Below are positions 7,436 through 61,980 of a stretch of 64,000 nucleotides of DNA, in pieces. The DNA is taken from positions 256,001 through 320,000 of IMG/VR virus record IMGVR_UViG_3300045988_170943, one strand, 5' to 3'. Each line of letters starts with the position of its first letter. Position 1 is the stretch's first letter. Below the pieces are notes generated by a model. It did not search any database, was not told the origin of the DNA, and saw only the letters and a list, made by a program, of their open reading frames with translations. Source of the stretch: a virus. The position numbers were made by a program, and so were the translations under genes.

Positions 7436-7465
7436 TTGACAATCGCCACCCCAATAGTGTAGTGT
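7436..7465 (+). promoter_or_regulatory. Candidate promoter (TTGACA -35, 18-nt spacer, TAGTGT -10) in the 270-bp non-coding gap upstream of the sigma-factor gene
   Basis: TTGACA at 7436-7441 and TAnnnT-type TAGTGT at 7460-7465. The gap is AT-richer than its surroundings. Confidence 0.3.
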
Positions 7466-7649
7466 ACACCACAGATCGCTCCGGGTAGGAGAGCAGCCTC
7501 AAAGGTCAGCGGTCAACACTCGTCGTTAGGGTACTGCTGGTTGCGTTCACACCTAGCCTGTTGCTGGCTAACGTGTCGATATTTGGCGGGCACTTTAACA
7601 CGGGTGTAGCCATAATTGACAAAAATACGAGGCTTAGCAACAACAAGAG

Positions 7650-8600: not shown

Positions 8601-8679
8601 CACAAGCCGAACCTACATTCCTCCACTCCGCCACGGCGTGAACAATGACCAGTGGAGAGAGTGAGGAACCACCTGCCGT

Positions 8680-8730
8680 AATGGTTGGGGCTAAAGCATG
8701 TCGGTAAGATGATGCATAGCCCCAACCATT
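8680..8730 (+). terminator. Perfect 14-bp inverted repeat hairpin (AATGGTTGGGGCTA / TAGCCCCAACCATT, 23-nt loop) downstream of the sigma-factor gene
   Basis: Read directly from the sequence. It has no U-tract, as is common for Actinobacterial intrinsic terminators. Confidence 0.45.
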
Positions 8731-8804
8731 CACGTATTGGCGCCCCCACCACAGAAGAATAAACAGAAGAAGGGCTCCAATACTACATGACACCGAGGTA
8801 GGTA

Positions 8805-9095
8805 ATGGCTAAGAAGAAGAACAGGCGCACCCCCATTTACATCGGGTTCCATGTGCCGTCACACACATCCACGGAACATGCACTCGCCACCATAAGTGGC
8901 GCCACCAAGATGCTACTGGACGACGGAACCTGGAAAACCATGGGTATCAACGAAGGAGACGAGATAGTAGTAGCCTTCACCACCCCCACCAGTGCGCACG
9001 CCCCCGAGTTCTTCCAGTCGCTCCAGTCCCTACTGTCCGTCACCCAAGACTTCACCCCACACTTCACCCAGTGGACCAAGGAGGACACCCAGTGA
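8805..9095 (+). CDS. Hypothetical protein
   Basis: 96-aa ORF with an AGGTAGGTAA RBS upstream. Confidence 0.3.
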   Translation: MAKKKNRRTPIYIGFHVPSHTSTEHALATISGATKMLLDDGTWKTMGINEGDEIVVAFTTPTSAHAPEFFQSLQSLLSVTQDFTPHFTQWTKEDTQ

Positions 9096-36186: not shown

Positions 36187-37260
36187 ATGTACACAACAGT
36201 AGGCGCCCTAGCGGCAGGCTACATCATCGGCATGCCCACTCTCATGGCCTTGTTCCTATTCGCCCACAACCGGCTCGTCACCGAGAAGAAGATAGAGCGA
36301 GCCACCCTCAAGAAAAAGAAGGGCACCCTTAAAGACTCCAGCAAAGACCCATCCAACATCGTCCCCCTGTCCGTCACTATCTGGGAACGACTCAACTTCC
36401 TCCTCAAAGAGGACACGCGACTACTAAGGTCAGGAAGCAAGAAGGACGACAACCAGGACGGCAAGGACGAGAAGGTGCCAGAGAGCGGCATCACCAACAA
36501 GCAAGCGTTTTTCGGGATCCTCACTGCTGGACTCATCATGTTCGTCTCACCTGCATTCGGTGCCACATGGTGGATGCTCGCCGCCGGAGGATTCACATTC
36601 TACAGTGCTATCGGGTTCGCCTCATCCACCGCAAAACCCATCATGGAGGCCCGCAAGAAAGCCATCACCAAGATGGTCAACATCGCCAAGTCCAAACTCG
36701 GCAACACGGAAACCAACCCCAGTGAGATCGTCACCGTCCTAGAATGGGATCAACTTGTCAAACCACTAAGGCTTACGTTCACGATCCCGCACACGTTCAA
36801 CGGGGAAATGGGAGAAGACGCATTCCTCCGACAGTTCAACCAGGGGTTCGGGCAGGTGCGCACATTCGTCCCAGACAACCGCGACCCACAGAAACCAGGC
36901 TGGGACTACGACCAGGACATTCTCACCCTGTACGCCGTACCCCCACTACCAGTCATCGCACCATTCAGCGAGCACTACGTCATCGGGGAAGCAATCGCCA
37001 AGTCATTCATCCCCATCGGACTGGGTATCGACGGTGGCCTGGAACTACCAAACCCTGAGACCGGGGAGATTGAGCACGTCATCGGGTTCGACCTAGCCGG
37101 TGAGCAGAAAGCCCTCGCAGACAAGTACGGAATCAAGGTCGCAGAAAACATCTCTGGCGCATCCCCACAGGGCCTCGTCGCCGGACCCACAGGTGGAGGC
37201 AAGTCACTGTCCATCGACACTCCCGTCCTTGTTCGTGTCCCTAAGAAACCGGTTGCGTGA
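36187..37260 (+). CDS. Polytopic membrane protein
   Basis: 357 aa with at least 3 TM helices (e.g. FFGILTAGLIMFVSPAFGATWWMLAAGGFTFYSAIGF). Confidence 0.45.
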   Translation: MYTTVGALAAGYIIGMPTLMALFLFAHNRLVTEKKIERATLKKKKGTLKDSSKDPSNIVPLSVTIWERLNFLLKEDTRLLRSGSKKDDNQDGKDEKVPESGITNKQAFFGILTAGLIMFVSPAFGATWWMLAAGGFTFYSAIGFASSTAKPIMEARKKAITKMVNIAKSKLGNTETNPSEIVTVLEWDQLVKPLRLTFTIPHTFNGEMGEDAFLRQFNQGFGQVRTFVPDNRDPQKPGWDYDQDILTLYAVPPLPVIAPFSEHYVIGEAIAKSFIPIGLGIDGGLELPNPETGEIEHVIGFDLAGEQKALADKYGIKVAENISGASPQGLVAGPTGGGKSLSIDTPVLVRVPKKPVA

Positions 37261-44268: not shown

Positions 44269-44476
44269 GGGCGAGATAGAGGTAGGGGAGCAGGTGCACG
44301 CCCTCAAGGCGTCATGATCTACCTGCCTCTACACGCCCCATGATTGACCCTAAACACACACCCTAAAATGGGGTTCACACGGCCCAGGCAGATCACCTCA
44401 ACATGGTCGCTGCCTGGGCCGTAGCCATGAACACCCTTGACAAACCCCACATACTCCCCTACAATACTCCCCAGAT

Positions 44477-47508: not shown

Positions 47509-49758
47509 GTGAGCGATAGCGCGAAGGGCCGTCAGATCAGCGACGTTGAGGCGTGGTCTATCGAACAGCGGGCATACGACATTCTCACAGGGCGTCGTAT
47601 CCGGCCACTGAACAAGTACGAGCAGAAGGTGTACGCGGACATCATCACCCGAGCCACATCTGACGGTTGGTTTCCGTCATTCAAGATGGGGTTCGCAGTG
47701 CTGGTGCCATTCATGGACGCTACTGCTCGAACCGCGTATGTTGATCAGTATGGCAGACTTGGACTGTCGTATGAACTGATTTACGCTCTTCCTTTCGAGG
47801 AGCAGGTGACCATCATTGTGCATGAGGTAATGCACATGCTCAGCAACCACATTACCCGCGGCAAGGCACTAGGTTTTGCGGACCTCCTGGACTGCAACAT
47901 CGTGAGCGACCTGGAAGTTAACACGGCCCTTGAGCGGTCCCCCAAGGCAGTACTCACGACAGGGATCCTTCCACAGAACTACAATCTTCCAGTCATGAAG
48001 ACCATGGAATGGTACTTCAAAAACTGGAACGACGACTTGACGGAACTGAAAGAACGTCAGCAGGAGGACCCCACCAATGGTCTCCCAAAGCCCCGCATGT
48101 CGCCGCTACCTAGCCAGGATGGCAGTAATGATCCCAAGGAGGATAGCGGCCAGCAGCCCAACCAGGACGCGGGCGACAACCCAGGGGGTGATTCTCAAAG
48201 CCAGGACAATAGTCAGGGTGATGGCGACAGTCCCCAGGAAGACGACTGCAACCAGGGTGATGACCCTGACAGCAATGAAGACACCCAGGCGAAACCTGAC
48301 AGCCAAGACAGAGCCCCTACCCAAGAGGGCTCTCAGGATGACACCAGCGGCGACCCCACAGACACCAGTGCCAACAGTAGCGAAGATTCCAACAACCGCC
48401 AGGACACCCCGAGTAACGACAGTGACTCGCAAGAACAGGGAGACAACCAGAGATCTGACTCTCAGGCCAGCAACAACCCGCAACAGGACGATTCTGAGCA
48501 GGGGCAGTGTAGTACACCTGACGGAGCCCAGGGCGAGGACAGTACCGGTTCCACTGGCAACAGTGGTGGAAACCAGCAGGGCTCATCTTCTGGCTCTAGC
48601 GGCCTTAACGAGGCGGGAAACTCTGACACAGCCACAGGAGACAACCCCAACAGGAACAGTCACTCTGACCCCAATGCGAGGGGAGACAGTCCTGGCGGAA
48701 ACTCTAGCAGCAACACCCTAGGCGGGAATGGTAGCAGTCCTAGCAGTGCGGACAGCGACAGTGGTCCAGTGACACCGCAGATTCCCATGTCACCCGAGTT
48801 CCCCAACGATCAGGACCAGGGGGCCAGTAACGGTTCCCGACTGGCCGCCAACCTTGACCAGATTCCAGGCGCACTAGGGGACGTTCTAAGGAACTACAAG
48901 CAGGAGATCCTTGAACGTCGGCTCAAACAGGCACCCAACCGCACCCACATGTGCGACAACCCCAGTGAAGCACGCGAAAGCGAGGCTGACGATGCGGGGA
49001 TCTACCGACAGAGCGTGTCCGCACAGAATAACGCCCGCGACAACGTTCGAGCCGAGTTGAAGAATGAGATCGCCTCCGGTAAGGCCGCCGGTAACGGGAC
49101 AGCAAACTTCGTTACCGCAATGGTGAACCTCATGGCCCCACCGAAGGTGGCCTGGCAGGACATTTTCAGGAGAAAAACCAGCCGCGTTGTTGGTGACCTC
49201 GTGGTTGGTAAGAACGTCAAGACCTACACGCGCACAGACCGCCGTTATGGGGGCGGTAGGGGGCAGGCTATCTTCCCCGGCAAGAAGAACATCGCTATCA
49301 AGGTGACAGTTGGGGTTGATCAGTCCGGTTCCATTGACGGTGACGACAATCGTCGCATGCTGGGAGAGGTCGCCGGAATCCTCAAGGAAGCAACAAAGGC
49401 GACACACGACGGTATCAAGTTCTTCACCGTGGACACCGAGGTGAAGAACATTCAACCAGTCAAGCGGCTCGAAGACCTTAAACTGATCGGTGGTGGCGGC
49501 ACAAGGATGGGGGCGGCCTTCGAGTACGTCAACAGCCTCCCCCCGAGGGATCGTCCTGACCTGTTCGTTCTTGCCACTGACGGATTCCTGCTCGACGAAG
49601 ACTGGGAGAACATCTATAGGCATGTGACAAGAACCCACAATGGGCGACTCCTGTACCGGACAGTCATCCTTGTCACCAACAAGGAGCGCTACGACGCATG
49701 CCCCATTAAGGTGAAGAACGCTACTACGGTCATCTGTATCGACGACGGGGATGAGTGA
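47509..49758 (+). CDS. Zn-metallopeptidase (HExxH) plus C-terminal von Willebrand A (MIDAS) domain protein, MoxR-partner type, with a ~230-aa acidic disordered linker
   Basis: N-terminal IIVHEVMHMLSNH. C-terminal VGVDQSGSIDGDD (DxSGS MIDAS) and GGGGTRMGAAFEYV. The central D/S/Q/N/G-rich low-complexity region spans about nt 48100-48780. GTG start. Confidence 0.6.
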   Translation: MSDSAKGRQISDVEAWSIEQRAYDILTGRRIRPLNKYEQKVYADIITRATSDGWFPSFKMGFAVLVPFMDATARTAYVDQYGRLGLSYELIYALPFEEQVTIIVHEVMHMLSNHITRGKALGFADLLDCNIVSDLEVNTALERSPKAVLTTGILPQNYNLPVMKTMEWYFKNWNDDLTELKERQQEDPTNGLPKPRMSPLPSQDGSNDPKEDSGQQPNQDAGDNPGGDSQSQDNSQGDGDSPQEDDCNQGDDPDSNEDTQAKPDSQDRAPTQEGSQDDTSGDPTDTSANSSEDSNNRQDTPSNDSDSQEQGDNQRSDSQASNNPQQDDSEQGQCSTPDGAQGEDSTGSTGNSGGNQQGSSSGSSGLNEAGNSDTATGDNPNRNSHSDPNARGDSPGGNSSSNTLGGNGSSPSSADSDSGPVTPQIPMSPEFPNDQDQGASNGSRLAANLDQIPGALGDVLRNYKQEILERRLKQAPNRTHMCDNPSEARESEADDAGIYRQSVSAQNNARDNVRAELKNEIASGKAAGNGTANFVTAMVNLMAPPKVAWQDIFRRKTSRVVGDLVVGKNVKTYTRTDRRYGGGRGQAIFPGKKNIAIKVTVGVDQSGSIDGDDNRRMLGEVAGILKEATKATHDGIKFFTVDTEVKNIQPVKRLEDLKLIGGGGTRMGAAFEYVNSLPPRDRPDLFVLATDGFLLDEDWENIYRHVTRTHNGRLLYRTVILVTNKERYDACPIKVKNATTVICIDDGDE

Positions 49759-49848
49759 CCTCAACACTATAGGGGCACCTGCTCACACACGCGGTTTCGG
49801 TAACCTGTCCTCGTACCAGGAAACCAACAAGCGTGAGCAGGTGCCCCT

Positions 49849-51006
49849 ATGCCAAGACAAGCCATCGCCGACAAGACCCTAAATAAGGTCGCAGAACTAG
49901 AGAAGTTCATGAAGTCCCTAAACAAGAACAGTAAGTTCAGGGGGTACAGCGACTCTGATCTTGTCACCAAGTTGGGTGCCAACCCTCCAAAGGTTGAGAC
50001 CATCTCCACTGGCAGCCTCACCCTAGATCAGGCTCTCGGTGGCGGCTTCGGTAAGGGTAGGCTGATCGAAATCTACGGCCCAGAAAGTTCCGGTAAGACA
50101 TCCGTAGCCCTCACCGCTATCGGCAACGTCCAACGGGAGGGCGGCACAGCACTATTCGTGGACGTCGAGTATGCTCTCGATCCCGTATACGCACGCAAAC
50201 TCGGTGTAGACACAAGCACCCTGTTCCTCGCCCAACCAGACACAGCCGAGATGGCGCTGGACCTCATCGAAGAGGTCGCCGGTTCAGGGAGCGCAGACAT
50301 CATCGTCCTAGACTCTATTGCCGCACTCACCCCAAAGGCCGAATTGGAAGGCAGCGCTGAAGACGTGACAGTCGGCCTTATTGCCCGCCTCCTGTCCAAG
50401 CAACTACGCAAACTTGTCGCTATCGCATCAAGGAATAAGAGCACCATCATCTTCATCAACCAGACGCGAGACAAGATCGGCGGATTCTCACCATACGGCA
50501 CCCCACAGACAACCCCCGGCGGCAAGGCTCCCAAGTACTACGCCACCCAGAGGATCAAAGTAGCCCGGGTTGGGAAACCAGACCTCTTCAAGGAAGGCCC
50601 CAACAAGGGGCTGCCCCGAAGCGTCAGAGTCAAGTACACTGTCGAGAAGAACAAGATCGCCCCACCGTTCCGCACCGCAGAAAGCGTCCTGGAATGGAGC
50701 CGCGGCATCAACCAGGCCGCAGAACTGTTCAACGTCGGCAAGGACTACGGCATCCTCGAAGGTGGCAGTGGCGGGCGATACAACCTTCCTGACACAGACT
50801 TCAAACTCCCAGTCGGTGCAGACAAGATTATCCACGAGATCGAAACCAACAAAGAACTCTTCGCCACACTGGAAGAAAGAGTCAGAGACGCCATCGAGAA
50901 GTCATTCAACGAGGAGGTCACCCCGATCCAGGAAGACGATCCCAGTGTTGAGGATGAGCCGCTAGAAGACCTCGAACCGGAAGAGACAGCAAACGCAGAA
51001 TGGTGA
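49849..51006 (+). CDS. recA: RecA-family recombinase (divergent)
   Basis: LDQALGGGFGKGRLIEIYGPESSGKTSVAL ... VDVEYALDPVYARKLGVDTSTLFLAQPDTAEMAL ... IIVLDSIAALTPKAELEG ... FINQTRDKIG matches the RecA core throughout. It has an acidic C-terminal tail. Confidence 0.8.
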   Translation: MPRQAIADKTLNKVAELEKFMKSLNKNSKFRGYSDSDLVTKLGANPPKVETISTGSLTLDQALGGGFGKGRLIEIYGPESSGKTSVALTAIGNVQREGGTALFVDVEYALDPVYARKLGVDTSTLFLAQPDTAEMALDLIEEVAGSGSADIIVLDSIAALTPKAELEGSAEDVTVGLIARLLSKQLRKLVAIASRNKSTIIFINQTRDKIGGFSPYGTPQTTPGGKAPKYYATQRIKVARVGKPDLFKEGPNKGLPRSVRVKYTVEKNKIAPPFRTAESVLEWSRGINQAAELFNVGKDYGILEGGSGGRYNLPDTDFKLPVGADKIIHEIETNKELFATLEERVRDAIEKSFNEEVTPIQEDDPSVEDEPLEDLEPEETANAEW

Positions 51007-51037
51007 CAATAGTCACCACAGGAAACTGAACATCCTA

Positions 51038-51079
51038 CATGGTGGGCACCTAGGAACATTGACCTGGGTGCCCACCATG
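51038..51079 (+). terminator. Perfect 13-bp hairpin (CATGGTGGGCACC / GGTGCCCACCATG, 16-nt loop) between recA and the MoxR-like gene
   Basis: Read directly from the sequence. The loop contains TTGACC. Confidence 0.45.
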
Positions 51080-51131
51080 TGCTATCGTGCCACCTAAGCG
51101 AAGGCAATGCCACACAAGAAAGGAACTTAAC

Positions 51132-52502
51132 GTGGCGGCAGAAGCAAAGGTCCAGGATGCAGACAACAAGGGGATCTGGTGGATTCACGGCGCACAAGAA
51201 GCCCCCGACAAATTCAACGGGCCACTAGACACATTTGAGGACATGGCTCCCAGCGAAATGATGCTGCGAGCATGCATCCTGTCACGTAACGTCGCCGCCC
51301 TAGTCTCAGACCCCGGCATGACAAAGACAGCCACAGTACGATCCATTACACGCGAAATGGGGTACGGACTTGTAACAATTATTGGCGCCCAAAAGGAAGC
51401 CCCAGACATCTCAGGATTCCCCACCAGGGGAACCTACAAGATTACCCTCACAAGCGAGGACGGCAGTACAGAGACCATGGAAGTCCCTGTCACAGAATAC
51501 GCGCCACAGAAATGGCAACACTTCGTCATCGAGAACAAGAAGGTCATCATCTTCCTGGATGAGTTCTCCAACACACACCCGTCCACTCGCGCTGGCATGC
51601 TGTCCTTCATCCAAGACCGCGAGTTCCCCGACGGCACCCCCTTCCCGAACGAAACAGTCATCGTGCTTGCGATGAACCCGACCGAGAGCGCACCCGACGG
51701 CTACGAGTTGGACCCAGCCACACGCAACCGGATCACGTTCATTGAGTGGAAGCCAGATAACGTCAAATGGCGTAAGGGGATGCTCAGCAAGTGGGGGACC
51801 GTCAACCCTCTTAGCAACAACGGCCTATGGCGCAAGGCAATTGTCAACTTCCTTGAGGAAAACCCTGGTCTTATCCACAAGATGCCGACAGAAAACTTCA
51901 ACAACGAGAACTCATCCGAGGTGGTCTACGGCCTAGACGCCTCCGACCCGTCATCTCGGATGGTAGCAAACGGACCCTGGCCGTCCCACCGCACCTGGGA
52001 CTTCCTAGGGGACATTCTAGGTACATCGTTCAAGTACGGAAGCCCCAAGAACCGTTATGTACGCGACCTCCTTGTTCGTGGAACTGTCGGGCCTGAGGCT
52101 GCCGACAAGTTCATTGAGTGGATAAGCCGCAACGGGGTCCTGGATGTCGCCAAGCACCTGAACGATCCTGACTCGTTCAGCCTCCAGCACTGGGCCGACC
52201 TGAAACAGGATGACTGGATGTACATTGTCCAGTCTGGCATCGATAAGAACTACCTGACACAGGCCAATGTCGCAAATGTCGTGCGTCTCTTCGAGATCGC
52301 AGTCGCCACGAAGTGTGAGGCATTCGTGTCGTTCGCTGTCGATGACCTATCCAAGATCCTTTCAACAGTGAGCATGGAGGAGGGGGAGAAAAAGGACCTC
52401 CTGTCCAACCGTATCCACAATACTCTTTGTGACCTTTATGGCGGAGAAAGCCGCCCCACAGAGTACGTTTCACCAAAACGTAAGGTGCGGGGCGAGCAGT
52501 AA
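51132..52502 (+). CDS. MoxR-like AAA+ ATPase
   Basis: Walker A DPGMTKTATV, Walker B VIIFLDEFSN, sensor VLAMNPTE. A GTG at 51132 is preceded by AAAGGAA; the track's GTG at 51087 is an alternative start. Confidence 0.6.
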   Translation: MAAEAKVQDADNKGIWWIHGAQEAPDKFNGPLDTFEDMAPSEMMLRACILSRNVAALVSDPGMTKTATVRSITREMGYGLVTIIGAQKEAPDISGFPTRGTYKITLTSEDGSTETMEVPVTEYAPQKWQHFVIENKKVIIFLDEFSNTHPSTRAGMLSFIQDREFPDGTPFPNETVIVLAMNPTESAPDGYELDPATRNRITFIEWKPDNVKWRKGMLSKWGTVNPLSNNGLWRKAIVNFLEENPGLIHKMPTENFNNENSSEVVYGLDASDPSSRMVANGPWPSHRTWDFLGDILGTSFKYGSPKNRYVRDLLVRGTVGPEAADKFIEWISRNGVLDVAKHLNDPDSFSLQHWADLKQDDWMYIVQSGIDKNYLTQANVANVVRLFEIAVATKCEAFVSFAVDDLSKILSTVSMEEGEKKDLLSNRIHNTLCDLYGGESRPTEYVSPKRKVRGEQ

Positions 52503-52762
52503 AATCTCCGCCCGTTTAAAGGCGTGCGCACAAACTGTGTACACCATGCTGGGCCGTAACCAGGGTAGGCTCTTTCCTTTCTTCCTCCCTGTGGTTACGG
52601 CCCAGCCCCTTCCTATTCCGCTACGAGAGCCTGGGGCGGGTGCTGCGACCTCCTGGACTGTAGGTGCGATGTGGGCCGGGTAGAATGGTGCTGCCCACCG
52701 CAAGTCAGCATTACCATCCGCCGCATAGGGGTGGGGTGCGAGAAGGAACAGAGGACATCCAC

Positions 52763-54226
52763 ATGTCAGACAGGAACGGCCTGTATCTGAGGGCACAGCG
52801 CAGCCTCGTGTCTGCCCTCCTGTTTGACGGCAGTGACGTAAACCGGGCACTGGAGTTCGTGTCCCCGGACGACTTCAATGATTCTGCCCTGAGCGAGATA
52901 ATGGAGTCTATAGCGAATGTTGCTCGCCGTGATGACATGGTGTCTGAGATAACAGTCAGCGAGGACCTTGAAGCCAGAGGAAAACTGGATAGCGTTGGTG
53001 GCGTGAAGACCATCTACGCGCTGCGTGTTCAAGGTGAACGGGCTCTTATGGAGGGTGTGATCACCACCTATGCGGCTGTCGTCCGGGAGTTCTCCAGCAA
53101 GAACTCGATCATGCGGCTTCTGCGTGACGCTGAAGCCATGTTTCAGGAGGACTCAGGTGTCACCGCCCGCGACGCTATCGCGACCCTCCAGGGACAGTTG
53201 AGCAATGAGGTACTGAAACTCACGGATGACGCAACCACCACGGAAGTGTCCGAGTACATCACCTCATACGAAGACATTCTCGCTGAGCGACTACAGATCA
53301 CGGAGGAGAACTCCCAGTACGCTGATGGCCTCCAGGGTATCCCGTCAATGGTGCCATCCCTAGACAAGTACACTGGCGGCTTCAAGGGCGGGGAGATGAT
53401 CGTAGTTGGGGCCAGGACTGGTATTGGTAAGTCCGTGTTCGCGGTCATGCAGGCTGTAGCGACCGCTCAGACCGGGAAGACCTGCCTATTTTTCTCTATG
53501 GAGATGAACCATGCGGAAATCATTGACCGCATGGTAGCGAACGTTTCCGGCGTTGATCAAAGTCGCCTGAAACAGGGGCGCGTCAACCCTGAGGAGATGA
53601 AGTCCGTGAGGGAGGCGATGAAGAAACTTGAAGACATGAACATCATCATCGACACGGACTCAGCCACCACCCTGGACAGTATCAGGTCGAAGGCGCAGAG
53701 GCAGGCTCAGACCAGTATCGGACTGGACATGATCATCATTGACTACCTGCAACTCATGTCCATGCCCGGCAAGTACAGCAACAGGCAGGAAGAAGTTGCG
53801 GCCCTGTCACACCAGATCAAGCAACTCGCCGCCTCCCTGAACGTACCCATCATGGTCCTGGTTCAGATGAACCCGAAGGATGAGCGAGGCAAAGACGGCG
53901 AAGAGATAATGCCGCACCATGATGATGTGCGCGAGTCCAGAGCCATCAGCCATGACAGCAACATGTTCATCATTCTTCACCGCAACACGAAGACCGACAA
54001 CACTGCGGACCGGACTCTCATCATCCTGAGCAAGAACCGTGGTGGCGCAGCCGGAAAGATTGTCGCCTGCCACTCCGACCTTAGTGTTGCCATGTTCCGA
54101 GAAATCAAGAAGGAAGAGGACGTCACCAAGGACAACCTGGACGCTATGGATAGTGACTTCGAGGAGTTCCTAGGTGACGGCGAGACCCTGGACGGCGACA
54201 TCGATCCAGGCGACATCGACTGGTAG
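52763..54226 (+). CDS. dnaB: DnaB-family replicative DNA helicase
   Basis: The N-terminal domain (LRAQRSLVSALLFDGSDV ... FNDSALSEIMESI) and RecA-like core (GGFKGGEMIVVGARTGIGKSVFAVMQA ... LFFSMEM ... IIIDYLQLM) match DnaB. ATG at 52763 with a GAAGGAACAGAGGA RBS. Confidence 0.75.
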   Translation: MSDRNGLYLRAQRSLVSALLFDGSDVNRALEFVSPDDFNDSALSEIMESIANVARRDDMVSEITVSEDLEARGKLDSVGGVKTIYALRVQGERALMEGVITTYAAVVREFSSKNSIMRLLRDAEAMFQEDSGVTARDAIATLQGQLSNEVLKLTDDATTTEVSEYITSYEDILAERLQITEENSQYADGLQGIPSMVPSLDKYTGGFKGGEMIVVGARTGIGKSVFAVMQAVATAQTGKTCLFFSMEMNHAEIIDRMVANVSGVDQSRLKQGRVNPEEMKSVREAMKKLEDMNIIIDTDSATTLDSIRSKAQRQAQTSIGLDMIIIDYLQLMSMPGKYSNRQEEVAALSHQIKQLAASLNVPIMVLVQMNPKDERGKDGEEIMPHHDDVRESRAISHDSNMFIILHRNTKTDNTADRTLIILSKNRGGAAGKIVACHSDLSVAMFREIKKEEDVTKDNLDAMDSDFEEFLGDGETLDGDIDPGDIDW

Positions 54227-54268
54227 AATCAGCAAAAGAGCAAGGATACAGGGGAGAAAGGGCGAACT

Positions 54269-54670
54269 ATGGGGACTACCTCAGCCAGACGGCACCCACT
54301 CATGCTGGGGGAGCAGCCACTACTCGCACTCGATGAGGACGCAGACAACAGTGGCTCTGCTGACGACACCTACCTGACAGAGGAACAGCAGGCTACCCGG
54401 TTCATGAGCCGCTGGCAGGAGAAGGTGGACCCACTGATCAGGTACAAGGACTACTTTGAATCCTCAGCCAAGACCAGTGGTCACATCTTTAAGGAGATCC
54501 GACGATTCTACCTGCAACTCGTCGTCAACGGCAACTGGTCAGACGGAAAGTTCGTCGCTGTCGTCGGCAAGATCATGTCGGACAACCAGCACACGGTCAA
54601 CACTCCAACCCTGGATGTTGTAGGCAGGCAGTACGACCGTGAACAGATCAAGACACAAAGACGTCGCTGA
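54269..54670 (+). CDS. Hypothetical protein
   Basis: 133-aa ORF between dnaB and the loader-like gene. Confidence 0.3.
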   Translation: MGTTSARRHPLMLGEQPLLALDEDADNSGSADDTYLTEEQQATRFMSRWQEKVDPLIRYKDYFESSAKTSGHIFKEIRRFYLQLVVNGNWSDGKFVAVVGKIMSDNQHTVNTPTLDVVGRQYDREQIKTQRRR

Positions 54671-54697
54671 GCAAAGCAACAGCCCAAGAAAGGGGGT

Positions 54698-55570
54698 GTG
54701 ACCCGAACCATCATGGTAACCACATTTAACGACCACATGTCCATGAGCAGCGATCTCGTTGACGTGCCAGTCAGCCGCACAGCCGTCAACCACAACACAG
54801 CCGATTATGAGCGGTTTCGCAAGCACATGGCTGACACAGAAGCCAAGTACCGTGCAGCCGAACGCAAGGAGCGGATCAAAGCCATTCAGCAGAACCTTGA
54901 CATGTGGGACCAGCAGACCCCATCTAGGTGGCGTGGCGCATCCCTGACCAAGATGCCCACCTCAGAGGCAGCACTGATCCTCACCAAGATCAAGAATGGC
55001 CCCAAGGGCGGTAGCGTCCTCATTACTGGCCCAGCAGGTGGCACACGCACCATGCTCGCGTATGCCACTGTCAGGAAGATGCTCGCCCAGGGTGTAGCAA
55101 CCCCCAGCCAAGTATGCATCCTCAGTGAGGATCGCATACTGTCATTCGGTAACGCCGGGTTCAGCGGCCGAGACAGACTCAACGCAGCCCTAGATCCGCA
55201 GTACAGGCTGTACCTCATCGATGGCGCTGGATCTAAGGTCACCTACACAGATCGTGAGGCAGCAGCCTATGAAGAGATCTTGGACCACATCTACAGTCGG
55301 GACCTCATCACCGTCATCACCTCCCCGACCAGTATTGTGGAGTTCGCCCGCAAGTTCAGCGAGACCTTTGAGGCCCGTATCATGGACCTCGTGGGCGACC
55401 GCACCATCACCCTACCCGATGTCAGCGACGCCCGCCCCATGAGCGACAGCAGTAGCGGAGACCAAGCGCGGCCAGTCGGGAGATCTAACACAATCTCCCA
55501 GAGCGACAACCTCCGTCAACCTCCGCCACGAGAGCAGTCAAATAGCAGGTTCGACAACTTCGGGTTCTGA
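54698..55570 (+). CDS. DnaC/IstB-like AAA+ protein with degenerate Walker A (possible helicase loader)
   Basis: KGGSVLITGPAGGTRTMLAYATV has a P-loop with R in place of the invariant K. LYLIDGAG is Walker B-like. It sits right after dnaB. Confidence 0.35.
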   Translation: MTRTIMVTTFNDHMSMSSDLVDVPVSRTAVNHNTADYERFRKHMADTEAKYRAAERKERIKAIQQNLDMWDQQTPSRWRGASLTKMPTSEAALILTKIKNGPKGGSVLITGPAGGTRTMLAYATVRKMLAQGVATPSQVCILSEDRILSFGNAGFSGRDRLNAALDPQYRLYLIDGAGSKVTYTDREAAAYEEILDHIYSRDLITVITSPTSIVEFARKFSETFEARIMDLVGDRTITLPDVSDARPMSDSSSGDQARPVGRSNTISQSDNLRQPPPREQSNSRFDNFGF

Positions 55571-55649
55571 GGTAAGGTCGGCAACACATGAACAGAACCC
55601 GAAGGTTTGACAACTGTGTAAAGTTTCTATTCTGCAACACCAGCGACCA

Positions 55650-55678
55650 TTGAGATCACTTGTGCTGCACGGTATAAT
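55650..55678 (+). promoter_or_regulatory. Near-consensus sigma-70-type promoter: TTGAGA - 17 nt - TATAAT
   Basis: TTGAGA at 55650-55655 and TATAAT at 55673-55678 with an exact 17-nt spacer. An AGGTG RBS lies 6 nt before the ATG at 55729. Confidence 0.5.
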
Positions 55679-55728
55679 CGACGGCAGATTGTACCTTAAT
55701 TCCACCACACCGATTGCAGGTGCCTCTT

Positions 55729-58083
55729 ATGTTCGAGACCTACCACAGGATGAAGAACACAGTCGATGTGTCGTTCGACGACTTCTTCACTGACTCCCCG
55801 GTCCACGTCACCAAAGGTGAACCTAAACCCAGGCGAACCCTGTCAATGGTCGCAAAGAACCTGGGTGTCTTCATGCTCGTCGCGGCCCTGTGCGGGACCC
55901 TCACCTCAGTGTGGCCGATCCTCGCGCTCAGCCAGGGGGTACAAGCCGCAGAACCAATCGCTGAGTACTGGAAGTCCCTGCCAGAGAACCTGGAAGACAT
56001 CGAGATCGGGCAGAAGAACACGCTACTCGACATCAACGGCACCCCATACGCTGAAGTATGGTCAGAGAACAGAACCACCCTCACCTCACTGGACCAGGTG
56101 AGCGACTACGCAAAAAAGGGCTTGATCGCAACCGAAGACAAGGACTTCTACAAGCACAAGGGCTTCAGCCTGAAAGGTACAGCGCGAGCAGCAATGTCCA
56201 GTTCCGGTGGAGGATCCGGCATCACCCAACAGTTAGTGAAAAACCTCCAGTTCTTCAACCTAGCCGGTCGAGACAAGAAAGACCAGGCCGTCGAAGCCAC
56301 CATCGGCCGCAAGGTACGCGAACTCAAACTGGCACTAGGCTACGAGAAGAAGCACACCAAGAACGAAATCCTGCTCACCTATTTCAACACCGTAGCGTTC
56401 GGCGGCCCCAACACGTACAGCATCGAGACCGCCGCCCAATACTACTTCGGGAAGCCAGCCAAGGACCTCGACCTGGCAGAGTCAGCAGTCCTCGTCGGAA
56501 GCGTCCAGAACCCCAGTCGCTTCAACCTAGACAACACCGAGGACAGCAAGACCAACTACAAGGCCCGCCAAAAAGATGTGCTCGACAGGATGGTCACAGA
56601 GGGTTACATCACCCAAGCCGACGCAGATAAGGCATATGGTGAGGAACTGAACCTCGTCTACAAGTCAACCTCCAACGGCAACTGCACCTCCAGCAGATAC
56701 CCCTACTACTGCGAGTATGTCATGGGCTACCTGTCCAAGTCACCGAAACTAGGGGAGACACAGGAAGAGCGAGACGCCATCCTCCGCAAGGGCGGCCTCC
56801 AGATACACACCTACCTAGACCCCAACGCTATGGGGATCGTGGACGCGCAACTCAAACAGGACTACGGAACAGACAACCACCTGGCCGCCCCTACCGCTGT
56901 CGTCCAACCAGGCACAGGAGGCGTACTCGCAATGGGATCCAACCGCGACTACGGGACCGGCCCAGGACAGACCACCGTCAACCTGCCCTTACATGCCACT
57001 GGCACCGGGTCCGTCTACAAAATGATCACACTCGCTGCCGCACTCCACGAAGGCTATACCGAGTCCGACCTAGCGTTCTCATCCCGATGCCCCCTCGTCG
57101 ATTCACGCTACGACACCCCAGACGGCGGAATCACCAACTCCGACTCCTGCTCCCTCCAGGGAGGTTACATGGACTACCGGACCGCCACAGCCCTATCCTC
57201 CAACACATGGTTCAGCGAGTTGGAGATCAAGGTCGGTGTCGAGAAGGTCAAGGAGTTCAGCGCCAGTGTCGGACTGTCCGCACCCGACAACATCACCTCC
57301 CGGTCCCTGGCCTACACGCTGGGTGTCACAGAGAACTCAGAGGTAGCGATGGCGGCAGCATTCGCAACATTCTCCAACGGCGGCATCTACTGCCCTCCCA
57401 GCCCCGTCTCTACGTTCTCTTACGCAGACGGCACCTCACCCGTTGTCCCAGACACCTATGACCCCAAGACAGACTCCTGCCGCCGTGTCCTGTCAGAGAA
57501 GGACAGCGGCGTGGTCCTCAAGGCTATGCGAGCCAACGTCAGCGGCGAGATCCCCAACGCTTTCGGGAACAAGTTCAACACATCAGGGTACACGACCGTA
57601 GCCAAGTCTGGCACCAACCAACTTTACAACTCCACGTGGGCTGTCTTGTCCGGCAACTTCAGTGTCTTCAGCAACATCTATGACCCTGTAGACTTCACTG
57701 AGGGCATGGACCCAACAACATACCGTGGCAGCCAGTACCGGTGGTGGGACCACGTGATCGGATACACGGGCCGCGACATCATGACCTCACTGCTGAACAC
57801 GGAAGGATACAAGCCCCTAAAGTTTGACAGCAGTGACGACACCATGACCGAGGTGTCCGTTGAGTCCAGGGACTTCGTAACCATCCCCTCCGTGATTGGT
57901 ATGGAACCGGCGCAAGCGATGGCGACGCTCAACTCGCTAGGGTTCCCTGCCCACCTGAGTAAGGAGAAGAAGCCAGCACCAGACGGTTACCAGTCTGGGG
58001 TGATTGTTGAGCAGAACCTCACCCCTGGCACCCAGTTGCCGGTCGGAAGTAAGAAGGAGATCATCATCTACCAGTCCAAGTAG
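55729..58083 (+). CDS. Class A penicillin-binding protein (GT51 transglycosylase + transpeptidase) with C-terminal PASTA domain, PonA2-like
   Basis: N-terminal TM helix. GT51 motifs ATEDKDFYKHKGFS and GGSGITQQLVKN. Transpeptidase motifs SVYK (SxxK), SSN (SxN) and KSG (KTG-like). A C-terminal ~70-aa PASTA fold (VTIPSVIGMEPAQAMATLNSLGF ... PGTQLPVGSKKEIIIYQSK). Confidence 0.7.
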   Translation: MFETYHRMKNTVDVSFDDFFTDSPVHVTKGEPKPRRTLSMVAKNLGVFMLVAALCGTLTSVWPILALSQGVQAAEPIAEYWKSLPENLEDIEIGQKNTLLDINGTPYAEVWSENRTTLTSLDQVSDYAKKGLIATEDKDFYKHKGFSLKGTARAAMSSSGGGSGITQQLVKNLQFFNLAGRDKKDQAVEATIGRKVRELKLALGYEKKHTKNEILLTYFNTVAFGGPNTYSIETAAQYYFGKPAKDLDLAESAVLVGSVQNPSRFNLDNTEDSKTNYKARQKDVLDRMVTEGYITQADADKAYGEELNLVYKSTSNGNCTSSRYPYYCEYVMGYLSKSPKLGETQEERDAILRKGGLQIHTYLDPNAMGIVDAQLKQDYGTDNHLAAPTAVVQPGTGGVLAMGSNRDYGTGPGQTTVNLPLHATGTGSVYKMITLAAALHEGYTESDLAFSSRCPLVDSRYDTPDGGITNSDSCSLQGGYMDYRTATALSSNTWFSELEIKVGVEKVKEFSASVGLSAPDNITSRSLAYTLGVTENSEVAMAAAFATFSNGGIYCPPSPVSTFSYADGTSPVVPDTYDPKTDSCRRVLSEKDSGVVLKAMRANVSGEIPNAFGNKFNTSGYTTVAKSGTNQLYNSTWAVLSGNFSVFSNIYDPVDFTEGMDPTTYRGSQYRWWDHVIGYTGRDIMTSLLNTEGYKPLKFDSSDDTMTEVSVESRDFVTIPSVIGMEPAQAMATLNSLGFPAHLSKEKKPAPDGYQSGVIVEQNLTPGTQLPVGSKKEIIIYQSK

Positions 58084-58271
58084 GCGGGTGAGAACTGCCT
58101 TAATCGGGCGGGGCATATAGACCTATTTTGTGACCCCGTGGCGGAGATTAGTGCTATCTGAGCGTAAGCCCCGCCACTGCGAGCGACGGTTTCGGTATCA
58201 TCCCCTATAGGCAGAAAAGAGGCGCCTCTCACCTAAGAGAGGTCGATGACGCAAACCGGAAGAGGTAGCCG

Positions 58272-59087
58272 ATGTCAAGCACGGTAGAGGAAGCGACCAC
58301 GGGCCTGGAACGCATGGAGCAGGCTGTCCGGGCGGCCCGGGATGCACGTGCGGCACTGAAGAAGGACCTGGAATCCGTGAAAGCGGAGATACAGGCACTC
58401 ACAGCCCTACAAGCACGCATTCAGGCATCATTGGACGCCACCTTAGCATTCACCTCCTCCGGCCCCAGTCAGCCCACCACAGCAGGCCCAGAAGAGACAG
58501 AACCAACTAAGGCTGTCGCACAGGAGGACACGCCACCTGAGTCCACCACGCCCCAGGGCACTCCGACAGGCATCGGCACACCCAGCCATGAGACAACACC
58601 TGTGGACGCATCTCTGGACACGTCCACCCAGCCAGGCCGAGCAGGCCACAGCCACATTGAGGGAGTGGGCTCTCCAGACACGCACAGCGGCGGCAGGCAG
58701 GCCGACAACAAGGATGCATCCACCAACACCCCAGATGCAGGCCCAGACCTGACACCATGGGAGGATGAGGCATACCTGAGTGACTACGGGCAGAACGATC
58801 AGGTGGAACGAACCCAGTGGCCATCCAGCCTAAAGACAGCAGACGAGATCTTCGACACCAGCAACCAGGAGATCCCAGAAGACAGCACTGCTGTGAGCAA
58901 AGAGCCCCAGGTGCCCACCAACACCACCTCAAAACCCAGCGACACAAGCCGGGGTAGAAAAGCGCGCACAGGCACCCAGAAGAAACCCGCCACCCATAAA
59001 ACCAGCACTAAGAAAAAGAGTGAGCCGCCCCCAATCGGTGACGGCATAGGAGATAACTTCACCATCGACTTCGGTGTCCCACTATGA
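58272..59087 (+). CDS. Hypothetical protein: N-terminal coiled coil, Pro/Thr/Ser-rich acidic remainder
   Basis: 271-aa ORF of low complexity. Confidence 0.35.
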   Translation: MSSTVEEATTGLERMEQAVRAARDARAALKKDLESVKAEIQALTALQARIQASLDATLAFTSSGPSQPTTAGPEETEPTKAVAQEDTPPESTTPQGTPTGIGTPSHETTPVDASLDTSTQPGRAGHSHIEGVGSPDTHSGGRQADNKDASTNTPDAGPDLTPWEDEAYLSDYGQNDQVERTQWPSSLKTADEIFDTSNQEIPEDSTAVSKEPQVPTNTTSKPSDTSRGRKARTGTQKKPATHKTSTKKKSEPPPIGDGIGDNFTIDFGVPL

Positions 59088-59109
59088 CATAGGCGAGAGG
59101 GAGTAGCCA

Positions 59110-60270
59110 GTGAAGATAATCACAGAAGCCAGCAAGTTCACCAACACCATCAAATGGGTGGGACTCGGCCTTGACAGGAAGACCAACGGTACCCGGATCA
59201 TCCTCGACGCCCACAGTGACGGACGCTGCTACCTGTCTTACCACAGCGGCAGCGTGTACACATCCGCCCCACTAGAAGTCCTAACCATCGACTTCCAGGA
59301 CGAAAACCCCAGCCAGGACAGCGTACAGGTCACCTTAGACGGAGTGTTTCTTCAACGTCTCGCCCAAGGACTACCCAAGACCGGTGACATCACTCTGATC
59401 AGCAGGCGAGATGAACCCATGAAGGTCACCTCCAAGACCGGCCGGTTCACCGCCCCCACCTACAACGCCCGCAAAAAGCCCACCCCCAACACGTCATGCG
59501 TCGGAGAGGTAGACGCAGCAGAGTTCTTCAGCACCATATCCAGGGCCGCCAGAGTGTGTGACAACCGTGAGAACATTAGGCACAAGTTCGTCAACACCGT
59601 GGACCTATCACTCAACCCAGACACAGGCACCATCCGAGTATTCTCCTTCGACACCTATGTGATGGCCGAAACCACCATGAGATATACACCCACCAGTCAG
59701 CCACAAAACCAGGGGTACGTGCTCATACCATCCCAGTACGCCTCCATGATCCGCCCAGACAAGGACATGACCGGTGCTGTCAAGATACTGGAAGAAATAG
59801 GGGCCAACGGGAAGACCTACCGGGTAGGGTTCGAGTTCGACGACGGCAGGCGGATCCTCATGCCACTCAAGGACGTCCTCAGGTGCCCGAACGTTGACGC
59901 CATGGTAGAGGAATGCAGAAGAGGAGTACAAGCCCAGGTTATCGTCTCCACCGCGGCAGTCACCTCAGCAATAAAGAACGTGTCTGCCCTCACAGCCAAC
60001 AAAACCGACATCAGCGTCACCGGCCAGGACATCACCCTCACCGTATCCTGTGACGACAACAGCATCACAGTGCCACTCACAGGCGGATCATTCGAGACCC
60101 CCATAGAAGCCCTGTTCTCACGGGAAGTCATCACCAAGGGCCTGTCACCTATCACCACGAAAGATGTTCAGGTCAGTTTCAGTACGGACGCGGTGATCCT
60201 AGAACCTATCGGGGCCAGCATTGACACCACAGTCATTTTCACCATGAAACGGTACAGGGGAGAGTCATGA
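59110..60270 (+). CDS. DNA polymerase III beta sliding-clamp-like protein
   Basis: At 386 aa it has three-domain clamp length. The N-terminus MKIITEASKFTNTIKWVGLGLDRK ... IILDAHSDGRCYLS follows the DnaN pattern (MKF.i.r..L...l..v...i..k...piL.n.ll.a.dg.l.l). GTG start with a GAGGGAG RBS, located next to dnaB. Confidence 0.45.
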   Translation: MKIITEASKFTNTIKWVGLGLDRKTNGTRIILDAHSDGRCYLSYHSGSVYTSAPLEVLTIDFQDENPSQDSVQVTLDGVFLQRLAQGLPKTGDITLISRRDEPMKVTSKTGRFTAPTYNARKKPTPNTSCVGEVDAAEFFSTISRAARVCDNRENIRHKFVNTVDLSLNPDTGTIRVFSFDTYVMAETTMRYTPTSQPQNQGYVLIPSQYASMIRPDKDMTGAVKILEEIGANGKTYRVGFEFDDGRRILMPLKDVLRCPNVDAMVEECRRGVQAQVIVSTAAVTSAIKNVSALTANKTDISVTGQDITLTVSCDDNSITVPLTGGSFETPIEALFSREVITKGLSPITTKDVQVSFSTDAVILEPIGASIDTTVIFTMKRYRGES

Positions 60271-60962
60271 CCATACACTTGTTGACGGCAGTATTCGGTG
60301 GCGTATCATCACTGATCCTACTGTTCGTGACTATGCTGTACTCCCCGGGCTGGGTTGACAGGGGCCGCTGGCAATTAGTGAACGTGCTAGCCTTCGTGAC
60401 ATCTACTGTATCCAGCATCTTCACATCCGCGATGCTCCCTTCTGGTGATGTTACGCACTGGCTCACGGCCGTGGCCGGGGGCGTGTCAGTAGGAACAACC
60501 GTGTTCGTCACCACCCAGTGCGCCTACACGGACTTCACCTACCGGAAGGGTGACAGGTGGACTCTGCGTGCAGCGATAGCGATGAACGCTGCCACAGGTG
60601 GGGTCAGCCTGTTCCTGGAGCCCGCGCGCACTCAGGGTGAGCGGTGGTTGTTCGTCCTCCTGGTGCTTCTGTCACTGGTGCTGTTTCTGATCCCGTCCCT
60701 GGGTAAGTCGGATGCCCGCGCCACTCTCTTAAGTGTTCTGGCGACTTACCCGATGGTGGGGGTCCTGGGCGTCCAGTGGGGCCTGATCGTCCTGGCGCTG
60801 GTTCTGGGGGTGTATGGGGTGTCCTCATCGGTGCGGATGATGTGGGGCGTGAAAGGTACATTGAGGGGTGTATTCCGGGAGAAGATGAGTATTCCCATGG
60901 TCCCACTCATCACTGGATCATTCCTGATTGCAGAGATATGTGCAGCACTGGCCCAACAGTAG
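60267..60962 (+). CDS. Polytopic membrane protein (about 6 TM helices)
   Basis: 231 aa, highly hydrophobic, with an ATGA overlap to the upstream gene. Confidence 0.45.
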   Translation: MTIHLLTAVFGGVSSLILLFVTMLYSPGWVDRGRWQLVNVLAFVTSTVSSIFTSAMLPSGDVTHWLTAVAGGVSVGTTVFVTTQCAYTDFTYRKGDRWTLRAAIAMNAATGGVSLFLEPARTQGERWLFVLLVLLSLVLFLIPSLGKSDARATLLSVLATYPMVGVLGVQWGLIVLALVLGVYGVSSSVRMMWGVKGTLRGVFREKMSIPMVPLITGSFLIAEICAALAQQ

Positions 60963-61020
60963 GCGGCGATATTCTGGTGAGTTTAATCACGGCCCTCCCT
61001 GGCAGGAGAAAGGCACACAA

Positions 61021-61980
61021 ATGAGCGACATCCTGGATTCTATCGACGAACTTGATGACATTGAGGACGGCGACCTCGACGTTGAAGACACTCACCCTAT
61101 CTCCATTGTCACGGGAGTCAACGATGACGACGGTGATAACTACTTCAATGAAGATGATGATGAGGAGGAAGACCTCGCCGCCGAGATGAGCAGTATCCTG
61201 GACGCCGAGGACACTCAGGCATCAGAGATGGGGCAGGCTGAGGCACAGGAGATAACCAACGCCATCAAATCCGCCGCAACTGTCACCTATGCCCTACTCG
61301 CTAAGGCCCACGAAGGTAAGGCTCACCAGTCACTCGGGTACGACTCGTGGGGCGAGTACGTCAAGGCCGAGTTCGAGATGAGTCCACAACGCTCATACCA
61401 GTTGCTTGACCTGTCTAAGGCCGTCAAGATGATCGAGGCCGCCGCACCAGAAGGCACCCATATCAAACTCACAGAGGCCCAGGCCAGAGACCTGAAGCGT
61501 GAATTACCTCGAATCACTGAACGCATCCATGAAGAGACCACCGGCAAGACCCCGGAAGAGTCACGAGAGATCATCGACGACATCGTTCGTGAGGAACGTG
61601 AGGAGAAGATCCAGAAGCGAGCCGAGGACAAGGCCCACAAGAGCCGAGAACAGGAAATGGACGAGGCCCGCGACGAAGGCTATCGTGCAGGCCTGGAGTC
61701 CGCCGCTGACGCCATCCTAGAGGCCGACGCAGAAAGGCAGGCTGTCAACGAGCCAGACGGTGGGCTCATGGACGTGGAGGTCGAAGGGGACATCAATCAG
61801 GCTGGCCGTGCAGAATACATGAAATTAGTTCAGGCGCTCGTCATGAACAGCAATATGGGTGACCCACAGGACATTGTTGACGCCATCCCGGAGAACAACT
61901 TTGAGGACATCTACGACCGGGTGATAGACACTGCTGGCCTATGGAACCGTATCGCCAACTACATGGACCTCAGGCGTTAA
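61021..61980 (+). CDS. Acidic protein with putative ParB/KorB-type helix-turn-helix
   Basis: HQSLGYDSWGEYVKAEFEMSPQRSYQLLDLSKAVKM resembles ParB-family HTH segments. An extremely acidic N-terminus (DDDGDNYFNEDDDEEED) and a K/E/R-rich middle. ATG at 61021 with a GGAGAAAGG RBS; the track start at 60928 overlaps the upstream gene. Confidence 0.3.
   Translation: MSDILDSIDELDDIEDGDLDVEDTHPISIVTGVNDDDGDNYFNEDDDEEEDLAAEMSSILDAEDTQASEMGQAEAQEITNAIKSAATVTYALLAKAHEGKAHQSLGYDSWGEYVKAEFEMSPQRSYQLLDLSKAVKMIEAAAPEGTHIKLTEAQARDLKRELPRITERIHEETTGKTPEESREIIDDIVREEREEKIQKRAEDKAHKSREQEMDEARDEGYRAGLESAADAILEADAERQAVNEPDGGLMDVEVEGDINQAGRAEYMKLVQALVMNSNMGDPQDIVDAIPENNFEDIYDRVIDTAGLWNRIANYMDLRR

Follow-up and report, generated by a model that had tools for sequence, protein, structure and literature searches.

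A PASTA-bearing class A penicillin-binding protein as a predicted core gene of a family of giant conjugative plasmid-like elements

Why would a large mobile element carry its own peptidoglycan synthase, and is such a gene part of the element or a passenger on it? The question is raised by a gene for a class A penicillin-binding protein (PBP) that lies towards the end of a stretch of 64,000 nucleotides (positions 256,001 to 320,000 of the IMG/VR virus record IMGVR_UViG_3300045988_170943), which was analysed as a whole and is called the window hereafter. We consider it reasonably probable that the gene encodes an active, actinobacterial PonA2-like class A PBP, which is a core gene of giant conjugative plasmid-like elements and has a role in maintaining the wall. 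The gene and its parts are listed first, with residues counted from the ATG at 55729.

55729 to 58083, + strand: coding sequence of the class A PBP, 784 amino acids (aa), with the ATG at 55729 as the likely start and TTG 55714 and GTG 55720 as in-frame alternatives
55718 to 55722, + strand: putative Shine-Dalgarno-like AGGTG, with a 6-nt spacer to the ATG at 55729, read from the sequence
55861 to 55929, + strand: single N-terminal transmembrane (TM) anchor, L45 to L67, from a hydropathy scan, a long N-terminal helix in the structural model and the sequence
56041 to 56592, + strand: GT51 glycosyltransferase domain (Pfam PF00912, 1.1e-46) with EDxxFxxHxG, GxSxITQQ and RKxxE
56896 to 57630, + strand: acyl-serine transpeptidase domain (Pfam PF00905, 3.2e-19) with S428xxK431, S490xN492 and K626SG628
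57877 to 58053, + strand: single C-terminal PASTA domain (Pfam PF03793, 2.5e-9)

The open reading frame (ORF) extends on the + strand from the TTG at 55714 to a stop codon ending at 58083, and the ATG at 55729, with the AGGTG before it, is the likeliest start; an identical 784-aa product is predicted by gene callers on nine public metagenome contigs. No convincing structure of an intrinsic terminator was found 3' of the gene (z = -0.35). The positive charge of a KPRR stretch before the TM helix predicts an N-in topology and hence catalytic domains on the outer side of the membrane. An earlier annotation made from the letters alone (the sequence-only reading) had described the catalytic motifs EDxxFxxHxG, GxSxITQQ, SxxK, SxN and KSG as intact and had placed a PASTA domain at the C terminus, and on both counts it was right. 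The three domains exceed their Pfam cut-offs (159 bits against 27 for PF00912, 69.7 against 22.1 for PF00905, and 37.4 against 23.2 for PF03793), and each motif is present in the translation: EDKDFYKHKG (E136, D137), GGSGITQQ (S163 to Q168) and RKVRE (R194, K195, E198) in the GT51 domain, and SVYK (S428, K431), SSN (S490, N492) and KSG (K626, G628) in the transpeptidase. All of them are invariant in a family alignment of 29 sequences (48-85% identity), in five more family sequences and in 20 cellular PBPs, the invariant GT51 residues being E136, D137, S163, Q167, Q168, R194, K195 and E198, while G724 and G757 of the PASTA domain are conserved in the family and cellular PBP comparison. Loss of the catalytic serine, which the earlier annotation had named as one finding that would speak against it, was looked for, and S428 is intact and invariant in the alignments.

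The fold agrees with this assignment. An AlphaFold model, made with the 29-sequence alignment as input, reached a mean pLDDT of 80.8 (75-88 over the PASTA stretch), and its top Foldseek matches were full-length PBP2, PBP1b and PBP1a, the best in the PDB being full-length Staphylococcus aureus PBP2 (3dwk, E 5.6e-31). The match to the NCBIfam family PBP_1a_fam (TIGR02074; 1.6e-81, 274.8 bits) falls under the curated cut-off of 508.75, which makes the protein a divergent member, the cut-off being a threshold for naming and no criterion of fold. Read from its sequence, the ORF encodes an intact, membrane-anchored, bifunctional class A PBP with a PASTA domain, which is presumably active as an enzyme.

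The second step is whether the gene belongs to the element, and here its surroundings are the most informative.

47509 to 61980, + strand: co-oriented conserved block around the PBP gene, defined by Pfam matches and synteny

The order within this block is a DUF2201 metallopeptidase/VWA protein, RecA, a MoxR-type AAA protein, DnaB, two unknowns, the PBP and four unknowns, and it continues past the end of the window with a ClpB-like AAA protein, one unknown and a RecG-like helicase. The block is present in 25 IMG/VR contigs; the PBP gene occupies it at 27 IMG/VR loci and on contigs of 670 and 727 kb, and the loci carrying the block span a GC content of 0.36-0.62. When 5.8 billion proteins were searched, a large PBP family emerged, nearly all of it metagenomic; its members, of about 780 aa, have the same three domains, are 49-99% identical to the query and are encoded on contigs of up to 727 kb. 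When the search was reversed and seeded with the conserved protein x350 of the same loci, 25 syntenic contigs with the PBP were recovered and one without it (L162, weighed below). Within the window's own clade, the dN/dS of the PBP is 0.06-0.10, which marks strong purifying selection. Compared with a clade of 49% GC, the PBP is 80% identical, against 52-54% for RecA, 50% for DnaB and 28-60% for the remaining block genes, and its nonsynonymous divergence (dN) is 0.15, against 0.43 for RecA, 0.44 for DnaB and 0.30-0.85 for the other block genes; the neighbouring RecA and DnaB genes evolve two to five times as fast. Synonymous sites are saturated in this comparison (pS 0.77) and the GC content of the PBP gene equals that of its own flanks, for which reason the 80% identity reflects constraint and not recent exchange; a recent transfer of the gene between the 56.5%-GC and the 49%-GC clades was ruled out on the same two grounds. 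On this comparative evidence the PBP is a near-universal, very slowly evolving core gene that a family of giant elements (0.2-0.7 Mb) has inherited vertically, not occasional cargo, and it appears as the most conserved gene so far seen in them. By eye, and with no Pfam match, the unknown proteins that flank it look like a DnaC-type loader with a degenerate P-loop (54698-55570), a beta-clamp-like protein (59110-60270), a four-TM, possibly prepilin-peptidase-like protein (60267-60962) and a ParB/HTH-like protein (60928-61980).

The gene also seems to have a promoter of its own.

55650 to 55678, + strand: predicted SigA/sigma-70-type promoter, TTGAGA (55650-55655), a 17-nt spacer and TATAAT (55673-55678)

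Transcription is predicted to start at about 55685-55686. The site matches the consensus at 11 of 12 positions, which upholds the near-consensus promoter of the sequence-only reading but not its rank as the best in the window, since it is tied with the only other 11/12 site that a scan of the whole window found, TTGACA-17-TACAAT at 44437-44465, directly upstream of a 953-aa methylase-like gene (44477-47338). Both sites are intergenic and each faces a gene, and 60 first-order Markov simulations gave a mean of 0.1 sites of at least 11/12 per window, against the two observed. In two close relatives (L085 and L098) both hexamers are unchanged despite 2-5 differences in the spacer and replacement of the DNA further 5', which argues for selection on the hexamers. 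At the same place, the 80%-identity (49%-GC) clade has CTGACA and a TG-extended TACAAT, separated by a 15-nt spacer. The promoter of the PBP gene is thus under apparent selection and would be used in the cell, although it is not family-wide: in L111, a JGI 3300045450 contig of 670,635 bp, the PBP gene begins 15 nt after two sugar-nucleotide genes. These genes (at 7847-9985), for an epimerase/dehydratase and a nucleotidyl transferase, are inserted directly 5' of the PBP, and their dTDP-sugar type suggests an envelope-related operon or site in that contig. A sigma-70-family factor is also encoded by the element itself (window 7650-8600; region 2 match, 3.9e-9), and the host's housekeeping sigma factor may therefore not read all of the element's promoters.

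As to where the protein came from, a neighbour-joining tree, drawn without bootstrap, gathered the element PBPs in one clade whose nearest neighbours are actinobacterial PBPs. Two cysteine pairs (319/328 and 555/584) are common to the element PBPs and the PBPs of Actinomycetes only, and are absent in the compared sequences of the candidate phyla radiation (CPR), Bacillota, Acidobacteriota, Melainabacteria, Acidimicrobiia and Gammaproteobacteria; a third pair (C454/C474) is confined to the element clade and sits in an insertion between SxxK and SxN. Taken together, the cysteine pairs, the PASTA domain and the tree support an old PonA2-like actinobacterial origin and no recent capture from the present host. 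Actinobacteria fold their exported proteins oxidatively, and the cysteine pairs argue indirectly for actinobacterial hosts.

The PBP is not the only wall enzyme of the element. Genes downstream of the window were read on the IMG/VR contig that carries the element (IMGVR_UViG_3300008363_000089), 3' of the window, and the following were found, in the coordinates of loci L127 and L173.

L127:17384-18028: signal peptidase S26 (3.7e-20)
L127:21091-22581, about 20 kb 3' of the PBP: membrane protein of 496 aa with four PASTA repeats (4xPASTA; repeats 1e-36)
L173:11774-12880: G5-NlpC/P60 endopeptidase (3.7e-22)
L173:15115-16038: G5-SLT lytic transglycosylase

The 4xPASTA protein has an acidic, probably disordered cytoplasmic N terminus and one TM helix, and is without a kinase domain. 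We take the NlpC/P60, SLT and 4xPASTA proteins to resemble the actinobacterial repertoire of RipA, RpfB and the PknB ectodomain. The downstream genes also include a class I ribonucleotide reductase (RNR) large subunit split by a LAGLIDADG-bearing intein (L127:13629-16538).

At the other end of the window, and upstream of it, genes of a transfer apparatus are present.

1761 to 3665, + strand: membrane-anchored wall hydrolase, Phage_lysozyme2 (Pfam 2.1e-27), with two TM helices, at the edge of the conjugation cluster
14160 to 15404, + strand: TadA/VirB11-family transfer ATPase (Pfam T2SSE 4.7e-27; TIGR03819 5.8e-40 and VirB11 1.4e-37, both below curated cut-offs)
22907 to 26068, + strand: VirB6-like 'mobilome membrane protein' of 1053 aa with about eight TM helices (CD3337/EF1877 6.2e-10, below cut-off; weak TrbL match, 4.6e-4)

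The upstream genes were read from the same IMG/VR contig, 5' of the window, where a DnaG primase gene, a TcpC match (7e-12) and a TcpF/VirB4-like protein (6e-8) are found, together with a weak VirB2-like match. The same upstream stretch further encodes a type IV coupling protein (TrwB_AAD_bind 1.8e-7 and TraG-D_C 1e-6 in Pfam; SXT_TraD 4e-18 in NCBIfam) and a NikA-like accessory protein (2.7e-6, 27.8 bits against a cut-off of 27). TrwB_AAD_bind, TraG-D_C and TcpC score above their Pfam cut-offs; TcpF, SXT_TraD and CD3337/EF1877 are significant yet fall under those of NCBIfam. No relaxase domain was found in the approximately 110 kb of the element examined, the NikA-like accessory protein being the only match of this kind. 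Judged by these similarities, a Gram-positive-type conjugation system is encoded, comprising the coupling protein, TcpC, the TcpF-like ATPase, the VirB6-like protein, the TadA/VirB11 ATPase and the hydrolase, and the large envelope-spanning apparatus that the sequence-only reading had supposed finds its counterpart here. Within the window, 36187-37260 encodes a two-TM protein with a Walker A motif (GPTGGGKS) just 25 residues before the stop, followed by a gap of 458 bp up to 37719; it may represent an ATPase cut short by truncation or a frameshift, perhaps a coupling-protein-like one.

With the PBP, the hydrolase linked to the type IV secretion system (T4SS) and the downstream hydrolases, the element encodes both wall-cutting and wall-building enzymes, and a role for the PBP can be proposed. 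The gene would be transcribed from its own SigA-type promoter, and the product would insert N-in through its single TM helix; the GT51 domain would then polymerise the host's lipid II and the transpeptidase would cross-link the new strands into the host sacculus, the PASTA domain probably helping to place the enzyme at nascent or damaged wall. Together with the hydrolases, the signal peptidase I and the 4xPASTA protein, the PBP would form a wall-remodelling set independent of the host's synthases. Class A PBPs are thought to act in wall repair and fortification, and the likely role of this one would be to repair or fortify the wall in a cell that holds wall-breaching transfer machinery, protecting the host cell and the element alike. 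The comparisons themselves show an intact gene, its fold, the conserved motifs, purifying selection, core-gene status, a conjugative context and actinobacterial ancestry, whereas enzymatic activity, use of the promoter, the part played by PASTA and this purpose of repair or fortification are what we infer.

The roles that the sequence-only reading put forward (wall repair around the apparatus, altered beta-lactam susceptibility, sensing through PASTA) are candidates, for a gene that does not adjoin the transfer genes. Several points weigh against the reading given above. The PBP gene lies 30-55 kb from the transfer genes, inside a block for replication and recombination, and with such a distance and a promoter of its own nothing ties it in regulation to the T4SS. 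In the contig found without it (L162; IMGVR_UViG_3300031417_000382, 6407-9270), a 271-aa ORF stands at the position of the PBP while MoxR, DnaB, x133, x290, the clamp-like protein and x350 are kept, so that there the PBP is either dispensable or relocated. The part of the element inspected amounts to about 110 kb of about 394 kb, with about 75 proteins compared with Pfam; the host assignment is based on one binned contig of 5.2 kb and on protein ancestry; and IMG/VR files all related contigs as viral.

The location of the gene and the housekeeping type of its promoter fit equally well an explanation in which the PBP is cargo of benefit to the host, duplicating host wall synthesis and raising tolerance to the wall stresses of the mouth (lysozyme, beta-lactams, osmotic or oxidative damage), unconnected to the transfer apparatus or the hydrolases. 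Soil actinobacterial megaplasmids do carry PASTA-bearing class A PBPs, and host benefit is also how the authors who described the Inocles, giant elements compared below, read the conserved PBP of those elements (PMC12340149). Cargo, however, is usually patchy and host-like, whereas this PBP is near-universal, evolves more slowly than any other gene of its block and is at most 35% identical to cellular PBPs among the matches listed, and the several wall hydrolases of the element would need a synthase to balance them. We therefore hold host benefit as the main reason for the gene to be unlikely, and prefer a core gene that maintains the wall.

The viral label leads to the nature of the element itself. 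Nearly all genes of the window lie on the + strand, and its GC content is 0.55-0.59 (56.5% for the element). The strand asymmetry is strong: on the coding strand of the window, whose genes are co-oriented, the AT skew is +0.09 to +0.36 and the GC skew is mostly negative, the opposite of three high-GC relatives (L103, L104 and L109; AT skew -0.28, GC skew +0.23). The exact PBP was located on an ENA contig of 418,686 bp and near-identical copies on IMG/VR contigs, the largest of 394,300 bp. In a further contig (L100/L107; IMGVR_UViG_3300012642_000011, 437,576 bp), the PBP locus occurs at the mirror-image positions 74309-96630 and 340947-363268; the start of the former copy and the end of the latter add up to the contig size plus one, so this contig looks like a palindromic fold-back assembly artefact, whose size is untrustworthy. 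Among 185,579 species-representative genomes, the only close match in the matches listed was a 5.2-kb contig binned in a metagenome-assembled genome (MAG) of an uncultured Actinomyces, the other matches listed being at most 35% identical to the PBP. Megablast found nothing similar among 50,697 phage records or the 72,556 plasmid records of PLSDB, in which tblastn with the PBP gave at most 33.5% identity and the conserved x350 and VirB6-like proteins gave no useful match. Most window proteins are without a Pfam family, and the 1053-aa and 1379-aa membrane proteins had no match in a sequence search of the PDB. A literature search for a giant element or jumbo phage of Actinomyces with a PBP returned nothing specific. 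Sample identifiers that we take to belong to the Human Microbiome Project (HMP) series presumably place some family members in human-associated samples.

Could the element nevertheless be a huge phage, whose PBP would serve as an auxiliary gene, preserving the wall of the host through a long infection or shutting out superinfection? The catalogue entries in IMG/VR, the size, the co-oriented genes, the RecA, DnaB, RNR, PhoH and HNH content and the intein are also typical of jumbo phages, and one report describes circular contigs of more than 300 kb from oral HMP samples as jumbo phages (bioRxiv 10.1101/2020.07.06.186817). On the other hand, within the 110 kb or so inspected, the approximately 75 proteins compared with Pfam and the 10 large unknown proteins compared with PHROGs yielded no capsid, portal, terminase or tail family; eight of the latter had no PHROGs match, and the remaining two matched an endolysin/tape-measure-type lysozyme domain and families of unknown function only, none of them structural. 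The coupling protein, TcpC, the TcpF-like ATPase and the NikA-like and VirB6-like proteins indicate conjugation, the phage records hold no close relative, and the BFVD library of viral structures holds no full-length bifunctional PBP, all of which makes a phage very unlikely. We conclude from the gene content of the inspected part that this is most probably a giant conjugative plasmid-like extrachromosomal element of about 0.4 Mb, rather than a phage or a hybrid, known only from metagenomes, and that its listing as a virus in IMG/VR is probably wrong. The element of the window comes from human metagenomes, probably of oral source, and its host is most likely an Actinomyces-type bacterium.

It might also be argued that the PBP is mainly a sensor, a scaffold or a beta-lactam sink, given its PASTA domain and the presence of a second, kinase-less 4xPASTA membrane protein on the element; yet the catalytic residues of both domains are invariant across a family diverged to 44-48% identity, which would be unexpected of a non-catalytic protein, and we regard this as highly improbable. 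The least credible proposal, that the window ends in chromosomal DNA and the PBP is an ordinary host gene, can appeal to the housekeeping-type functions of RecA, DnaB, SSB and the RecG-like helicase, but it was rejected after a search for chromosomal flanks, as the 64 kb contain no tRNA or other Rfam family, most neighbouring proteins have no known family, the locus occurs among the genome matches listed on the single binned 5.2-kb contig only, and the block accompanies conjugation genes on contigs 0.2-0.7 Mb in size, in keeping with the mobile element on which the PBP had first been placed.

If the PBP is, as we favour, a wall-maintaining core gene, a large and widespread family of conjugative elements of 0.2-0.7 Mb, which isolate genomes do not reveal and IMG/VR lists as viral, has as its most conserved gene seen so far a cell-wall synthase and not a replication gene. 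The PBP could affect the tolerance of oral Actinomyces-type bacteria to beta-lactams and lysozyme, and it offers a practical marker with which such elements can be recovered and re-classified. A broader idea, which we put forward tentatively and regard as somewhat doubtful, is that actinobacterial giant conjugative elements, perhaps all Gram-positive ones including the Inocles, carry an autonomous peptidoglycan-remodelling system and are now mis-filed as viruses. The parts of such a system would be a private class A PBP, RipA-like and Rpf-like hydrolases, the kinase-less 4xPASTA protein and signal peptidase I; the element, and not the host, would then control wall growth or repair, the formation of mating junctions or the exit from dormancy, and the PBP would be its most constrained component, usable as a marker of the family.

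Set beside known systems, the protein is closest in structure to S. aureus PBP2 (3DWK, 2OLV), with which it aligns over both catalytic domains in about 650-665 columns, although sequence identity is 20% and PBP2 is without a PASTA domain. The PonA2-type enzyme of Mycobacterium tuberculosis is a class A PBP with a C-terminal PASTA domain, and the element PBP has the same order of TM helix, GT51 domain, transpeptidase and one PASTA domain; it differs in falling in a separate clade, with the same limit of 35% identity to cellular PBPs among the matches listed, and in the extra cysteine-stapled insertion between SxxK and SxN. With the Tcp and Tn916 systems (pCW3) the element shares a coupling protein, TcpC, a TcpF-like ATPase, a VirB6-like CD3337/EF1877 protein and a wall hydrolase, but it adds a TadA/VirB11 ATPase and most of its matches are far below the curated cut-offs; we know of no PBP carried by systems of the pCW3 Tcp or Tn916 type. 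The plasmid pACHL01 of Pseudarthrobacter chlorophenolicus A6 is likewise a replicon of about 0.4 Mb with mostly co-oriented hypothetical genes and a PASTA-bearing class A PBP (WP_012623350.1), whose alignment to the element PBP runs through the PASTA domain; the two PBPs are, however, 31.6% identical, there is no synteny, and PLSDB contains no match to the other core proteins of the element family.

To our knowledge, the Inocles were, in 2025, the first giant elements reported to conserve a PBP. They are circular plasmid-like elements of oral Streptococcus, of 245-395 kb and with co-oriented replichores (Kiguchi et al. 2025, PMC12340149), and are set beside the present element by their published description only. 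A protein with TM, transglycosylase and transpeptidase parts is conserved in all their taxa, and they carry VirB4/VirD4, a sigma factor and DNA-repair genes, with a signal peptidase in three of four taxa (PMC12340149). Since such a PBP is conserved throughout the Inocles (PMC12340149), and since megaplasmids of the pACHL01 type carry PASTA-bearing ones, the earlier statement that a PBP on a mobile element is rare was too strong. Neither the Inocle marker InoC (PF13814) nor sortase A was encountered among the approximately 75 proteins in the 110 kb examined here. The GC content of the Inocles is 24-32%, and their PBP is reported as homologous to chromosomal genes of Streptococcus, with no PASTA domain described (PMC12340149), whereas the present element has 56.5% GC and a PASTA-bearing PBP of actinobacterial ancestry in a clade far from cellular genes. 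Both nevertheless conserve a class A PBP with a TM anchor across a family of giant elements of about 0.25-0.4 Mb from the human mouth, in the present case probably so, and both combine co-oriented genes with VirB4/VirD4-type transfer genes, a signal peptidase S26, a sigma factor and DNA-repair genes, so that by analogy the Inocle PBP would be the closest precedent for the one described here. The same design in the Inocles and in an actinobacterial lineage, which has an ancient PBP clade of its own together with hydrolases and PASTA proteins to match, suggests that a supply of wall-building enzyme may be a general requirement, or strategy, of giant elements in Gram-positive bacteria.

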